Positions 2,613 to 23,326 of a stretch of DNA of 24,000 nt are shown in pieces (positions within the stretch are counted from its first letter, which is position 1; every line of letters starts with the position of its first letter). Source of the stretch: Halanaerobiales bacterium (lineage in GTDB: Bacteria; Bacillota; Halanaerobiia; Halanaerobiales; DTU029); contig JARRCS010000004.1 in NCBI GenBank assembly GCA_029981855.1, forward strand, positions 2,074-26,073, written 5' to 3'. The position numbers and the translations under genes were made by a program. Under the pieces are notes generated by a model. It was given only the letters and a program-made list of their open reading frames with translations. It was not told where the DNA came from and ran no database searches.

Positions 2613-2647
2613 AAGGTTTCTGCAATCGGAAACATCTATTTGTAGTT
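2613..2647. repeat. Repeat-family copy E: right-end fragment (3' arm of module H plus the right inverted repeat)
   Basis: 2613-2632 is identical (20/20) to 19343-19362. 2624-2642 is identical (19/19) to 20619-20637. It ends with CATCTATTTGTAGTT, the reverse complement of the AACTACAAATAGATG seen at 22317. Confidence 0.8.
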
Positions 2648-12702: not shown

Positions 12703-12893
12703 TTTACCCGCCCCTTTCTTAAAATCTTAATGTCTAGTAAATTATGCATAGCTGAATCTGTGCACAATTTACGACATCAACAAATTGACCTTTTAAATGA
12801 TTATAGTAAAGCCAATTTGTTCAAATTATGTTAAGCCAAAACCAACATAATTTCCGCCATAACAACTACTAAAACTTCAGTATATTATAATTA

Positions 12894-12923
12894 ATATTCG
12901 ACAAAAAGATAATAAATTCCTGC
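12894..12923 (-). promoter_or_regulatory. Candidate sigma-H promoter for hpf
   Basis: Minus strand: GCAGGAATT, a 12-nt spacer, then GTCGAATAT. This matches the B. subtilis sigma-H consensus RNAGGAWWW-N11-12-RNNGAATWW as I recall it. A TATAAT (12890-12885) directly follows. Confidence 0.4.
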
Positions 12924-13040
12924 CTAAAATATTTATACCATCCCCTATTTATTCTCCTTGACTTTTAGAATATTTATTCATTTAATAATCGCTTTAGAGA
13001 TTATGATTAGGTAATCGGCGAAAATTATTCCCCGGCAATC

Positions 13041-13072
13041 AAAAAAACCCTGATCACTTAGAGCAATCAGGG
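13041..13072 (-). terminator. Rho-independent terminator after the cold-shock gene
   Basis: Minus strand: CCCTGAT (13072-13066) / ATCAGGG (13054-13048) with an 11-nt loop is followed by TTTTTTT (13047-13041). Confidence 0.75.
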
Positions 13073-13106
13073 TGGTGTTGCTATATTATAAGGTCCTTAC
13101 ATACCA

Positions 13107-13310
13107 TTATAATTTAACAACATTTGCGGCTTGAGGACCACGATCACCTTCTACGATCTCAAATTCTACATCCTGGCCTTCTTCCAGTGTCTTGAATCCT
13201 TCATCCTGGATGGCAGAGAAGTGGACAAATACATCATCACCATCTTCTCTTTCAATAAAACCATAACCTTTCTGTGCATCGAACCATTTCACCTTACCAG
13301 AAAAAATCAT
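13107..13310 (-). CDS. Cold-shock protein, CspA family
   Basis: 67 aa. [30 protein letters not shown] contains the RNP1/RNP2 motifs. AGGAGGA lies upstream of the ATG. Confidence 0.95.
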
Positions 13311-13381
13311 CTTTAAACATTCCTCCTAAAAATTCTTTAAATGGGCATTCGTTTTCCTAAGTATTTGTACCCATCAACATT

Positions 13382-13410
13382 ACTATAACATAACCCCGGA
13401 TACTTGTCAA
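13382..13410 (-). promoter_or_regulatory. Sigma-A promoter of the cold-shock gene
   Basis: Minus strand: TTGACA (13410-13405), a 17-nt spacer and TATAGT (13387-13382), with an A/T-rich UP-like tract upstream. It predicts a leader of about 65 nt. Confidence 0.65.
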
Positions 13411-13461
13411 ATAAATTTTTAATTGATTTTGCCTATTTTTACAAATTATTTCCGGCGATTA

Positions 13462-16450: not shown

Positions 16451-16565
16451 CCTTAAATGGCGTAAGATACCCCGTCCTCTATAAGGCGAGGAGGAATGCG
16501 CCTTCCCCCTTCCTGTTAAGCAGAATAGATGTAACCATAACCATCAACTCTTAATTACAGCAGGA

Positions 16566-18509: not shown

Positions 18510-18640
18510 CTTTAATGTTCCGACGGTCCGTAGGGCCCAGTACTTGTAGTGAGACGCAGATGTGCCGAACGGAAAGTGAAACAAAATTTTGCCAACCACT
18601 TTTTGCCCTTCCGTGCGGGGCCGGGACATTTTTAACGTTC
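18510..18640. other. Unassigned GC-rich structured element (element F); candidate sRNA or operon 3' structure
   Basis: It is locally GC-rich within an AT-rich spacer. Three related segments are present: ATGTTCCGACGG (18515-18526), ATGTGCCGAACGG (18560-18572), and the complement of 18611-18629 (ATGTCCCGGCCCCGCACGG). The third can pair with either of the first two. There is an inner hairpin AAAGTG (18573-78) / CACTTT (18598-603), and T5 follows the 3' arm on the plus strand. Confidence 0.35.
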
Positions 18641-18650
18641 ATACGGAAAA

Positions 18651-18989
18651 TCATCTATCTATACTATGCGGCTCTTTTGACTTTAACTCCTGATATAATA
18701 CCCTGCTCAAGCTATTCATACCCTGCTGGTTAGAACCTATTTTACTGATTTCAGTGTCGAGCATATCTGTAAAGATATCTTCGGAAAACCCACCATCGAT
18801 AAACCCGCTCTCGGGAACCGTACCCCGCATAGCCTTAAACATCTGCTTTAAGAAGATTGCCGTAAACTCATTACATAATTCCTTAAGCTGCTCATCCTTA
18901 CTCCCTTTCCCTGACCAGGATTGTTTTTCAAGTTTCCGGGCATCCTGATAGGTTTTATACTGCTGCAAAATTAAATTATCTATCTTCAT
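18651..18989 (-). CDS. flgJ: Flagellar rod-binding protein (FlgJ N-terminal-domain only)
   Basis: 112 aa. ELCNEFTAIFLKQMFKAMR is the Rod-binding (FlgJ N-domain) motif. No muramidase domain is present. AAGGAG lies upstream of the ATG, and the gene is last in the flgFGAHI series. Confidence 0.7.
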   Translation of the reverse strand: MKIDNLILQQYKTYQDARKLEKQSWSGKGSKDEQLKELCNEFTAIFLKQMFKAMRGTVPESGFIDGGFSEDIFTDMLDTEISKIGSNQQGMNSLSRVLYQELKSKEPHSIDR

Positions 18990-19136
18990 TTAAGCCACTC
19001 CTTAAGTTTATACTTCACTTCCATTCAGCAATAACTGCAACAAGCAATTTCCTAGTAGTATTAGATTAATGCCACACTCTGTTCGGCAACTTGCTTTACC
19101 TTCAAACAACTGCAAATAGATGTTGGAGAAATGTTT

Positions 19137-19289
19137 GGAAATTTTTTGCAAATGACTCTTGGTGAATCGGAGTTAAAAATCAGGTCGAGCCACAGGATGT
19201 GGCGAGCTTATCAAGGGTCAGGATGACCCATTTGATAAGTTTGCCTGATTTTTAACGGAGATAAACCTTAGAGTCATCAAAAAATTTCC
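19137..19289. ncRNA. S module: 153-nt three-way-junction fold with twin CAGGATG hairpin loops (strand unresolved)
   Basis: P1 pairs 19137-19148 and 19152-19158 with 19271-19289 (19 bp, with a 3-nt bulge). P2 pairs 19172-19184 with 19244-19256 (13 bp, perfect). P3 is the hairpin 19189-19203 (GCCAC AGGAT GTGGC). P4 is the hairpin 19207-19239 (CTTATCAAGGGTC AGGAT GACCCatTTGATAAG). Both strands of the P1/P2 internal loop contain CGGAG. Confidence 0.5.
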
Positions 19290-19353
19290 CTGCGACGCGC
19301 TCGATGCGCTAGTGCAGAAACCATCATTGCGTAACTAAAAAGAAGGTTTCTGC
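19290..19353. ncRNA. H module, copy 1: two hairpins supported by covariation with copy 2
   Basis: The hairpins are GCGC-TCGAT-GCGC (19297-19309) and GCAGAAACC, a 22-nt loop, GGTTTCTGC (19314-19353). The paired positions co-vary with the copy at 23217-23280. Confidence 0.6.
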
Positions 19354-20487
19354 AATCGGAAAAGCAATTATATCCCTGGGGCTAGCCCCGATAGCATTTA
19401 GAGCTGCCACTATCTCGCCGATGGTCCCCCCACTCGGCACAACCACCATATGGCCTTCTCCCTCCGATATCTTAATCTCCGTCTCTTTAGTGATTGTTGT
19501 CTCACCACCGCTAAAGGGAGCGGGTTGGGAAACCTTCTCACCGCTAGATATCTTTACCGTTAGATTACCATGGGCCACGGAAACTGTCGAAATTCTCACA
19601 TTATGGCCCATAACTATTGTTCCCGTCCGTTCATTAATAACTACCTTGGCCTCCATACCTGCCCGGACCTTAAAATTGTTAATTTTGGCGATAAACTCTA
19701 CCACCTTATCCCTGAACTGTTCCGGTATATTAACATTTACCTTACCGGCATCTACCGCCTCAGCAATCGGTTCAGCAGTAAAAAGGTATTTAAAATTATC
19801 ATTTATTGCCTGGGCAATAAAACTAGCTGTCTCAAAATTCGGCTGGTCCAGCAAAAAGGTCAGGTTTCTATGGCTCAAGCCGAAATTCAATTCCCGTTCC
19901 ACAATGGCCCCTTCCGGTATCCTGGCCACGGTCGGGTGGTTCTTTCTGACCTGAGTTCCACCCGACCTGGTGTTAAATCCCCCGATAGAGACTGGTCCCT
20001 GGGCAACGGCATAGACCTCCCCGTTGGCCGCCTTCAAGGGGGTCATCAGAAGGGTACCTCCCTGCAAACTCTTGGCATCCCCCAGGGAATTTACCGTTAC
20101 ATCTATCCTGTCACCCTTATGGGCAAAGGGAGGAAGACTGGCGGTAACTATTACGGCAGCCAGATTACGGCTGCGAATCTGCTCCGGGGTAACATTAACC
20201 CCGAATTTTTTTAACATATTAGCTACCATCTGGATAGTGGCCTGGCTGCGGTTACTATCACCCGTTCCGGCCAGGCCGATAACAATACCGTTCCCCATCA
20301 ACAGATTATCCCTGATCCCTTCAATCCTGGTTATATCCCCTATATTAACTAGCGGGTCTTCAGGTGAGGCAGCCAAAAGAGAACTACTTAAGGTAATGGC
20401 TAAAGCAATGACTACCGGAACCGCTAATATATACTTAAACAATTTTCTTCTTGCTAAATAACGACCGAAGGCTGATTTATTAATCAT
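19324..20487 (-). CDS. flgI: Flagellar P-ring protein FlgI with a non-canonical, repeat-derived C-terminus
   Basis: 387 aa. A signal peptide is followed by IGDITRIEGIRDNLLMGNGIVIGLAGTGD, typical FlgI, through ...LNAIGASPRDIIA. The final FPIAETFFLVTQ is encoded by the repeat and replaces the usual ILQA.K.AGAL.AEL..I tail. Confidence 0.9.
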   Translation of the reverse strand: MINKSAFGRYLARRKLFKYILAVPVVIALAITLSSSLLAASPEDPLVNIGDITRIEGIRDNLLMGNGIVIGLAGTGDSNRSQATIQMVANMLKKFGVNVTPEQIRSRNLAAVIVTASLPPFAHKGDRIDVTVNSLGDAKSLQGGTLLMTPLKAANGEVYAVAQGPVSIGGFNTRSGGTQVRKNHPTVARIPEGAIVERELNFGLSHRNLTFLLDQPNFETASFIAQAINDNFKYLFTAEPIAEAVDAGKVNVNIPEQFRDKVVEFIAKINNFKVRAGMEAKVVINERTGTIVMGHNVRISTVSVAHGNLTVKISSGEKVSQPAPFSGGETTITKETEIKISEGEGHMVVVPSGGTIGEIVAALNAIGASPRDIIAFPIAETFFLVTQ

Positions 20488-20584
20488 GAACTCCCTCCTT
20501 TCATTAGAACAGTGTAAGACCTTTTTATAGAGAACACTTTATAATTAATCCCTTTCAATTAATACCTCATTATCGTTCGGTAAT

Positions 20585-20642
20585 AACTACAAATAGAGTC
20601 ATCAAAAAATTTCCACTGAATCGGAAACATCTATTTGCAGTT
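20585..20642. repeat. Repeat-family copy B: 58-nt miniature element with both inverted-repeat ends
   Basis: The sequence is AACTACAAATAG...CATCTATTTGCAGTT. The termini pair over about 12 of 13 positions, and there is an inner stem TTTCC/GGAAA. The interior consists of the 21-mer shared with copy A and the AATCGGAAA segment shared with copies A and E. Confidence 0.8.
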
Positions 20643-20671
20643 TTAAAAAAGGAATTTCCTACAGGATTTAA

Positions 20672-21259
20672 TTAGAAGATCCAGTTTAGAAATCTTTCCA
20701 GCAGGCCCGGCTTCTGTTTATCGGCAACAACACCCTTACCCTGGTAATCGATACTTGCCTCGGCCACCTTTTTAGAAGAAACCGTATTCTCCGGTGTTAT
20801 ATCCTCAGGCCTAATGATACCCGATAACCTGATTATCTGTTTCTCTCCATTTATTTTAATCTCCTTGGTTCCTGCAATCCTAAAATTACCACTGGGCAGG
20901 ACTTCCTTAATGATGGTAGTAATATCGGCCTTCAATTTACCGCTCTGTACGGTCTTACCATCTGCAGTGCTCTGATCAGAATAGCTAAAGCCGAAGGCCT
21001 TGATAAAGTCAAAGATACCCAAACCGGAACCTGCATCAATACTGCTTTCCTGGCTGGTATTGGTATTGGCACTCTGAACTGCATTAGCATCTTCCTCAAT
21101 TATAATGGTGACTACATCACCTACCCTGAACTCCCGGTTTTTATCTTCATCCTGATAGAGATTAACAGCCTGGTCTGACCAGAGGGAATTATCAGCAAAT
21201 ACTGTCAAACTGTAGGAACAAACCACTATAATCAGCAAGAATAATTTAACCTTCACCAC
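20672..21259 (-). CDS. flgH: Flagellar L-ring protein FlgH
   Basis: 195 aa. After a signal peptide come SLWSDQAVNLYQD, FRVGDVVTIIIEE and SGNFRIAGTKEIKINGEKQIIRLSGIIRPEDI, which is the FlgH pattern. It uses a GTG start with GGGGGAG upstream. Confidence 0.85.
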   Translation of the reverse strand: MVKVKLFLLIIVVCSYSLTVFADNSLWSDQAVNLYQDEDKNREFRVGDVVTIIIEEDANAVQSANTNTSQESSIDAGSGLGIFDFIKAFGFSYSDQSTADGKTVQSGKLKADITTIIKEVLPSGNFRIAGTKEIKINGEKQIIRLSGIIRPEDITPENTVSSKKVAEASIDYQGKGVVADKQKPGLLERFLNWIF

Positions 21260-22316: not shown

Positions 22317-22345
22317 AACTACAAATAGATGCTCGAGAGATGTTT
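22317..22345. repeat. Repeat-family copy C: isolated end fragment abutting the flgG stop
   Basis: AACTACAAATAGATGCTCGAGAGATGTTT matches the left end of copy A (19108-19136) at 25/29. The flgG stop codon (22344-22346) overlaps its last bases. Confidence 0.7.
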
Positions 22346-23132: not shown

Positions 23133-23216
23133 TAAAATCACTCCCTGTTTTTTGATTTCGTAATTCGGGGTTGTCTCTGTCATTCAACAACCCTATCAGC
23201 CTCCGTAAAGGTCCAG

Positions 23217-23326
23217 CTGCGACGCACTCGATGTGCTAGTGTCTAAACCATCATTGCGTAATTTTAAAGAAGGTTTAGACCGACATGCTCGATGCAAAAA
23301 GCAAATTTCTGTAGTATCTGGTTAAT
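23217..23326. repeat. Repeat-family copy D: H module copy 2, a second CTCGATG mini-hairpin and module X
   Basis: 23217-23280 aligns with 19290-19353 at 53/64, and every stem difference is compensated. 23293-23326 aligns with 19036-19070 at roughly 80% by eye (module X). It ends 5 nt from the flgF stop. Confidence 0.75.

Follow-up and report, generated by a model that had tools for sequence, protein, structure and literature searches.

The intergenic sequences of the flagellar flgF-flgG-flgA-flgH-flgI-flgJ operon of an uncultured Halanaerobiales bacterium (assembly GCA_029981855.1, contig JARRCS010000004.1) were analyzed within a stretch of 24,000 nucleotides (nt), hereafter the window, with emphasis on positions 19036-19363 at the flgI-flgJ junction. 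This region is probably a pile-up of small, non-coding and non-autonomous repeats that resemble miniature inverted-repeat transposable elements (MITEs) or bacterial interspersed mosaic elements (BIMEs), are specific to this Halanaerobiales lineage and would be moved in trans. The comparison of the available sequences establishes that the blocks: (i) are repeated beyond chance; (ii) are absent in relatives; (iii) vary among strains that are 99% identical; (iv) remove, in one allele, the conserved end of flgI.

The original prediction was based on five block matches between intergenic sites, and all five were found again: 2613-2632 with 19343-19362 (20/20), 19269-19289 with 20594-20614 (21/21), 2624-2648 with 20619-20643 (24/25), 19108-19136 with 22317-22345 (86% identity) and 19290-19349 with 23217-23276 (87% identity over 60 nt). 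The terminal 15-mer AACTRCAAATAGATG occurs 5 times in the window at no more than 2 mismatches, in both orientations, for 0.13 occurrences expected; none of 100 shuffles reached 5. There are 13 direct 17-mer pairs, vs. 0.03 in dinucleotide shuffles, and all the exact repeats of at least 17 nt in the 24 kb are localized at intergenic module sites. The identities between copies range from 100% to about 82%, thus both young and old insertions are present. The flg gaps of the window measure 148 nt (flgF-flgG), 75 nt (flgG-flgA), 10 nt (flgA-flgH), 184 nt (flgH-flgI) and 334 nt (flgI-flgJ). A module is present in each gap longer than 10 nt (copies E, D, C and B, respectively) and copy A lies between csaB and tagA, as had been announced. 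On the other hand, the idea of a single family with one pair of ends is probably not right: 19036-19363 seems to combine at least three units, i.e., a backbone ended by AACTRCAAATAGATG, a 64-nt module H and a 157-nt module S, accompanied by decay products.

Contigs of the same species, 99-100% identical to the window, were obtained through exact-protein look-ups in short-read assemblies from seven other samples. Three alleles of the flgI-flgJ junction exist in the species. The window allele carries 293 bp (19070-19362) in place of the last 48 nt of flgI. In L033, L035 and L036 the gap is 71 nt. In L030 and L034 (one sample) FlgI is intact and an insertion is found past module X at ...TAGGAAATT; it starts with CCTTTT, ends with ...H-GGAAATTTTTTGATGACTCTAAGGTTTC and has AAATT on both sides. 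Likewise, the flgH-flgI gap is 69 nt in other strains vs. 184 nt in the window, where positions 20533-20655 correspond to 8 bp there. The empty alleles keep X and end-like remnants (AAAACT joined to ATATAAAAAGG when empty, AAAACTGCAAATAG... when filled), thus part of the variation may be the deletion of older insertions. Judged from these alleles, the flg junctions are hot spots of gain and loss.

The window allele modifies the end of a structural gene. The window FlgI terminates with FPIAETFFLVTQ, which comes from H and the adjacent 9-mer, where the alignment of nine homologues has the invariant IIQEIKAAGALHAKIELI; 16 conserved C-terminal residues are lost, and copy B encodes the final 12 codons of the flgI open reading frame (ORF) as well as its stop. 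The intact C-terminus is found in four other samples, i.e., L030, L033, L035 (393 aa) and L036 (392 aa, ORF cut at its 5' end by the contig edge). The window FlgI is probably a pseudogene product or a crippled P-ring protein, and the loss of its conserved C-terminus would probably compromise the P ring in this strain. The csaB stop codon (TAG) is located inside the 15-mer end of copy A (2636-2650) and the last codons of csaB (..LLNYK and the stop) probably come from the same 15-mer. The flgJ stop lies within a degenerate copy (18651-18665). On this evidence the elements appear to supply new gene ends. The earlier statement that no copy has coding capacity must be restricted accordingly: the units (29-293 bp) have no ORF of their own, none exceeding 47 aa, but copy B gives the end of flgI and copy A the stop of csaB. 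A self-splicing intron or IStron in flgI was also considered and was rejected: no intron family matches in Rfam, even at an E-value of 5, and removal of the element gives at best LKVKQVAEQSVALI in any frame, without the invariant residues; IIQEIKAAGALHAKIELI is not restored and the 48 nt are gone.

Three relatives (L031, L032 and L039) have a FlgI 68-72% identical to that of the window in full alignment (74-75% in local alignment). Their flg loci, where empty sites were to be looked for, have mostly tight junctions: 153 nt (flgF-flgG), 17 nt (flgG-flgA), 15 nt (flgA-flgH), 15 nt (flgH-flgI) and 10 nt (flgI-flgJ) in L032, 12 nt (flgI-flgJ) in L031, and 79 nt (flgA-flgH), 10 nt (flgH-flgI) and 0 nt (flgI-flgJ) in L039. 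No homology to the modules was detected at the flg junctions of these three relatives. In the flgF-flgG gap, the part common to the window and a relative is only the native segment CAGCTGGACC...ACGGA.GCTGA, thus the extra ~115 nt of the window (X and H) is an insertion. At the remaining sites, each protein stops at the residue where that of the relative stops, and the elements start at or right after the stop codon. When the condition that had been set for refuting the mobile-repeat reading was applied, the outcome favored this reading: the sequences are absent in the relatives, ~99%-identical strains are polymorphic and copies lie outside the operon. The native part of the flgF-flgG gap (23184-23216; L032:3449-3601) consists of CAGCTGGACC...ACGGAGGCTGA and then a hairpin. 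Its position is conserved in the relative, and it probably holds a native terminator or promoter.

In gene sense, the full composite reads AACTRCAAATAGATG - TTTCCGATT - H (64 nt) - GGAAATTTTTTGATGACTCT - S core - AGAGTCATTTGCAAAAAATTTCC - AAACATTTCTCCAA - CATCTATTTGCAGTT - tail. Copy B is bounded on the right (gene sense) by the terminal 15-mer at 19108-19122 (AACTGCAAATAGATG on the plus strand), which the repeat search also found at 2633-2647 (minus), 20628-20642 (minus), 22317-22331 (plus) and, with 2 mismatches, at 20585-20599 (plus). Next to it are the spacer of the long-type end (19123-19138, sense AAACATTTCTCCAA), which is shared with site D and a copy on contig L037, and module S (19135-19291, plus strand), a hairpin resembling the TwoAYGGAY motif (Rfam RF01731), with folding z-scores of −8.7 and −8.8. 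Module H (19290-19353) consists of a 9-bp hairpin (GCAGAAACC/GGTTTCTGC) with a 22-nt loop and of a 4-bp hairpin with the loop ATCGA (sense). The 9-mer TTTCCGATT (sense, 19354-19362) normally follows the left 15-mer; in copy B it abuts flgI at the 19362/19363 boundary, the left 15-mer being gone together with the end of flgI. On the other side, the right end is followed by a tail (19070-19107, sense GTTTGAAGG...GCCGAACAGAGTGTGGCA), the first 7 nt of which are repeated after the L037 copy, then by module X (19044-19069, sense TTAATCTAATACTACTAGGAAATTGC), which opens with the final native codons of flgI and their stop. A basal layer present in all alleles (18990-19043) contains an end-like TTGTTGCAGTT and a tail similar to module T, and runs into the flgJ ribosome-binding site; the relatives have just 0-12 nt at that position.

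The other copies combine the same modules in various ways, with sharp boundaries. Site C (flgH-flgI, 20533-20655, 123 bp) holds a mini-element with both inverted ends (20585-20642; 13/15 and 15/15 for the 15-mers), which encloses one arm of the S closing stem (20594-20614), a tail T (20533-20584), ~70% similar to the basal flgI-flgJ tail, and a module X (20653-20675), which overlaps the flgH stop and to which the left end is joined at GGAAATT followed by CCTTTTTTAA. From its sequence, copy C can be derived from a B-type copy by deletions at TCTA and GCAG microhomologies. Site D (flgG-flgA, 22317-22345) is a solo long-type end starting at the flgG stop codon, and the L037 copy is of the same kind. 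Copy E (flgF-flgG) is H alone (23217-23280), without any 15-mer end, beside an extra small hairpin TGC-ATCGA-GCA (23287-23297) and a module X (23294-23326) just past the flgF stop. Site A (csaB-tagA, 2613-2649) is a 5' fragment that extends from the left 15-mer through the 9-mer to the 11th nt of H. The suspected degenerate relatives at 18643-18665 and 16518-16536 are plausible: a left-end copy at the flgJ stop aligns over 18630-18665 (sense ATAGATGATTTTCCGTATGAA vs. AATAGATGTTTCCGATTGCAG) and an end copy in the gap between the NAGPA-domain and pfkB-family kinase genes aligns over 16515-16540 (ACATCTATTCTGCTTAACAGG vs. ACATCTATTTGTAGTTTAACAGG at site A). The ends are of two subtypes, AAACAT-CTATTTGYAGTT and AAACATYTCTCNNNNATCTATTTRYAGTT. 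The blocks had been described as bounded by inverted ends; this is true for copy C, but A, B and D carry a single end and E lacks both.

Module X is real, though weaker than the other blocks (B and E are 77.5% identical over 40 nt, and C matches at 77% over 30 nt). It comes after the stop codon of three flg genes, and even the emptiest alleles keep it. At two sites the junction between the left end and X falls at exactly the same point (GGAAATT joined to CCTTTT), which suggests a target preference. Concerning folding, H differs between B and E at 8 stem positions, which make up 4 double-sided compensatory pairs with no broken pair (100% of the cells are paired); these hairpins are thus maintained, either as RNA or as single-stranded DNA. 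The whole copy B folds far better than shuffled sequences on either strand (z of about −8.8). Rfam at relaxed thresholds gave only noise for H, C, E and the relatives' loci.

The family is not restricted to the operon. In addition to copy A, a sixth copy AAACATCTCTCTAATATCTATTTACAGTTGTTTAAAC is located beyond the window edge, after an ABC-transporter-associated gene, on contig L037, which extends 2 kb past the window. With the degenerate copies at 16.5 and 18.6 kb, this brings the sites to 6 clear and 2 degenerate ones within about 26 kb. Eight contig ends of the independent assemblies fall inside modules: H (site E), the 15-mer (A and C) and X plus H (B). For a graph with k=31, such contig ends would imply further genomic copies sharing those 30-mers. 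A degenerate 24-nt end pattern had no match in genome and metagenome collections (from which this species is missing). For another pattern, ATCTATTTRYAGTTGTTTRAA, all the matches were single ones in unrelated taxa, as expected by chance, and one of them was a 25-nt look-alike in the very AT-rich contig L046; a 17-mer search gave 27 single matches in viral contigs, i.e., the chance level. The concatenated six-frame translations of the elements had no match in a protein-database search.

Some features were observed beside the copies. Right after the sixth copy (L037:3060-3140), a strong ribosome-binding site precedes a 25-codon ORF, MLAMVQINYIRTASDVKDQLFFDNL; then come ~250 nt of AT-rich spacer containing tandem TTTTTATTTGCTG repeats, and a gene for a CtpB-like peptidase. 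In the gap between flgJ and the NAGPA-domain gene, a G+C-rich segment of ~112 bp (18520-18631), unrelated to the modules, is present in the window and L036 and is cleanly absent in L034 (...CCGTATGAA joined to ACATTAAAGTG), with GAA or AA at both junctions. The contigs L033 and L035 end inside this segment, which has no Rfam match and does not fold unusually (z of 0.09); it is possibly another small mobile element. It should be noted that L034:2804-2825, at the end of this Logan contig, is the Illumina adapter AGATCGGAAGAGCGTCGTGTAG, i.e., a contamination in a public assembly and not a biological feature.

All the genes of the window are on the minus strand. According to Pfam, these are flgF (23892-23332, the start of which is probably past the window edge), flgG (23183-22344), flgA (22268-21270), flgH (21259-20672), flgI (20487-19324) and a flgJ-like rod-binding gene (18989-18651), then genes for a NAGPA-domain protein, a pfkB-family kinase, a cytidylyltransferase-like protein, a sigma-70-family factor and a ComF-like phosphoribosyltransferase, followed by cspA, hpf, secA, prfB, csaB (3811-2636) and tagA (2594-1848). 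FlgI shares 65% identity with its Halothermothrix orenii counterpart, and the top named matches are Halanaerobiales. Exact look-ups of the window FlgI, SecA and PfkB-family proteins returned no matching record. The only gene within 12703-13461 encodes a 67-aa cold-shock protein (13107-13310, minus strand) with large untranslated flanks; beside the csp gene of the relative L031, a match to the cspA thermoregulator-like Rfam family reaches 48 bits, below the gathering score.

Module S deserves a separate description. In a targeted Rfam scan, 19135-19291 aligned with the complete RF01731 model (TwoAYGGAY, 1-168), on the plus strand alone, with 29.5 bits (E 0.006-0.012), which falls short of the gathering threshold of 43 bits; the scan of the whole window gave nothing at gathering scores. 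The closing stem (arms 19139-19160 and 19269-19289) has about 20 bp plus further pairs, and two terminal hairpins, GCCACAGGATGTGGC (19189-19203) and GGGTCAGGATGACCC (19215-19229), expose CAGGATG loops (19193-19199 and 19219-19225). As RNA these loops are CAGGAUG (AGGAU) vs. the consensus CAUGGAUG, i.e., one base short of AYGGAY. S is to be regarded as TwoAYGGAY-like and not as a member. Very long P1 stems, of up to 24 bp, were described for TwoAYGGAY when the motif was first reported (Weinberg et al. 2010, PMC2864571). The published alignment includes at least 5 copies with conserved flanks from a single Psychromonas genome, and longer inverted repeats surround an example from a gut metagenome (PMC2864571); in our reading, the known motif thus also looks repeat-like. 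CsrA binds CAGGA(U/A/C)G in hairpin loops, which is the repeat of CsrB; the S loops equal this repeat and are close to RUACARGGAUGU, the CsrA site selected by SELEX (PMC7652899). TwoAYGGAY was proposed to be a CsrA sponge in Clostridia (PMC4333381), and CsrA-FliW governs flagellin in Firmicutes. The coincidence of CsrA-type loops with a flagellar operon is striking, yet the CsrA idea is a low-probability lead.

Two consequences of this likeness can be weighed. According to the first, the plus strand of S would be transcribed into a functional RNA of the TwoAYGGAY class, the two CAGGAUG loops of which would titrate CsrA, a translational regulator linked to the flagellum in Firmicutes; the position in flg would then be functional. 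The full-length match, the CsrB-type loops, the sponge proposal and a GGAG on both stem arms (plus strand) are in favor of it. However, the match is below threshold with shortened loops, its strand is antisense to all the window genes, flg included, and no promoter for plus-strand transcription of S was found nearby (the sole consensus match is 470 nt upstream and the frequency of such matches is not above that of shuffles). Moreover, S has one copy here, the strains lacking it have an intact operon, and the relatives do not have it. A functional RNA gene is therefore improbable. The second is that TwoAYGGAY-class hairpins are cargo or core modules of small mobile elements and not free-standing small RNA (sRNA) genes, here dropping paired CsrA-type hairpins into flagellar operons. 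This is put forward as a long shot. If true, mobile CsrA decoys or antisense regulators could rewire the CsrA-FliW control of flagella, according to orientation and read-through; at least, the orphan TwoAYGGAY motif would be explained as selfish DNA.

Other explanations concern the region as a whole. If the modules served the flg operon as a conserved cis-regulatory leader or an intercistronic RNA (attenuator, processing site or internal promoters) and not mobile DNA, their location right at stop codons and before ribosome-binding sites, their very stable folds and the presence of X after three flg stops in all alleles would be accounted for. It is nevertheless very unlikely, and the comparative data already largely refute it: the three relatives have mostly tight junctions without modules, strains 99% identical are polymorphic, the same blocks occur in both orientations and at the csaB/tagA and ABC-transporter loci, and one allele destroys the FlgI C-terminus. 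An assembly artefact, in which chimeric joins between repeats of a metagenome-assembled contig would have made the mosaic and the truncated flgI, agrees with the breakage of short-read assemblies at these repeats and with the fact that the exact truncated FlgI is in no other assembly. This too hardly deserves credit, since the independent contigs L001, L002 and L037 are 100% identical across D, the left junction of C and A, L034 independently shows H and a stem arm upstream of flgJ, and the flgI/element junction shares no k-mer able to cause a false join. The most serious competitor, possible though doubtful, is a system of the repetitive extragenic palindromic (REP)/BIME type. The hairpins would then be single-stranded DNA substrates of a domesticated HUH tyrosine transposase (a REP-associated tyrosine transposase, RAYT, or a TnpA of the IS200/IS605 type) with a single gene elsewhere in the genome, and the 15-mer would be the cleavage or guide sequence and not the terminal inverted repeat of an element moved by cut and paste. 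Stems kept by compensatory change with conserved loops, the mosaic of modules found in either orientation at the 3' ends of genes and within operons, the lack of a clear target duplication, most copies without paired inverted ends and two insertions directly 3' of the same short GGAAATT are all consistent with it. The G[T/C]AG of the end may also recall the REP tetranucleotide. On the contrary, the window has no gene for a RAYT or a TnpA, S and copy C have classical long inverted repeats, and 6-8 copies are few for judging the cleavage-site logic; to our knowledge, REP/RAYT systems are described mainly in Proteobacteria, which also counts against it. Partial matches to hammerhead- or twister-type ribozyme cores in H, and to Xer/dif sites or a CodY box in X and the stem arm, were seen by eye only; they are weak and were discarded.

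For the preferred explanation, i.e., a pile-up of small repeats moved in trans, the following course can be proposed. The elements would have been inserted, nested and partly deleted at gene 3' ends and operon junctions, the mobilizing enzyme being encoded elsewhere. The candidate agents are a transposase (DDE) acting on the 15-bp inverted ends or a single-strand HUH enzyme reading the hairpins. Short derivatives may arise by deletion between microhomologies, e.g., TCTA...TCTA turning a B-type into a C-type copy, and insertions may favor X (GGAAATT) as a docking site. As the flg transcripts include the elements, the very stable hairpins of the latter probably alter the processing or the polarity of the flg mRNA, as a side effect and not as their reason for existing. 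Several points weigh against this explanation: (i) no consistent target-site duplication emerges from the ends, AAATT being found at the insertion of the third allele while six other ends have only A/T-rich flanks; (ii) paired inverted ends are found in copy C alone; (iii) no autonomous partner was found, none of the 21 window ORFs with a Pfam match having a transposase-family domain; (iv) as the empty alleles keep X and remnants, part of the polymorphism may be deletion or recombination between copies and not fresh transposition; (v) the truncated flgI allele is in no independent assembly; (vi) the copy counts come from the window and L037 only, the species being missing from genome and metagenome collections.

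These results are of interest at several levels. The repeats form an undescribed, apparently lineage-specific mosaic family in the Halanaerobiales, an order of diderm Firmicutes, and the strain-level evidence indicates activity or instability. The family can put a gene of the flagellar P ring out of action, and would be a ready source of motility variation in natural populations. A TwoAYGGAY look-alike acting as a module of mobile DNA bears on the interpretation of that motif, i.e., sRNA, CsrA sponge or transposon structure. In practice, the repeats fragment the short-read assemblies of this organism, and it is advisable to mask or model them before binning or strain comparison.

The comparison with known systems can be summarized as follows. 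A full-text literature search yielded no paper pairing Halanaerobiales, Halanaerobium or Halothermothrix with MITEs or REP elements, and a full-text search for the end sequences gave nothing relevant; the order is not known to carry elements of the REP/BIME type. Module S is built as TwoAYGGAY (RF01731; PMC2864571) is: the closing stem is very long, and there are an internal loop and two neighbouring terminal hairpins with GGAU in their loops. It differs by its score (29.5 vs. 43 bits), its loops (CAGGAUG vs. CAYGGAYG) and its status as a module of a strain-polymorphic composite insertion. As for MITEs, the differences are the inconsistent target-site duplication, the mostly single-ended copies, the many module combinations and the lack of an identified parent insertion sequence with matching ends. 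The similarities are the small size (29-293 bp, for a MITE limit of about 600 bp), the non-coding and AT-rich character, the inverted ends (the 15-mers of copy C and the ~20-bp arms of S), the several copies, the insertion polymorphism between strains, the truncated or internally deleted derivatives and the insertion at gene ends. The Correia elements of Neisseria and the BOX elements of Streptococcus pneumoniae, to which the region had been likened by its architecture, are also modular or inverted-repeat intergenic repeats co-transcribed with their neighbours, and they can alter mRNA processing and expression; the 26-bp terminal inverted repeats and TA duplication of the former and the A-B-C order of the latter are not the patterns observed here. 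Finally, the REP/BIME sequences of Enterobacteria and the REPINs of Pseudomonas (with their RAYT) have no sequence relation with the present units, which are longer, more heterogeneous and unaccompanied by a RAYT gene in the window. They nevertheless share with them the mosaic of short palindromes and linkers in both orientations, the location after stop codons and inside operons with co-transcription, and the hairpins kept by compensatory change.

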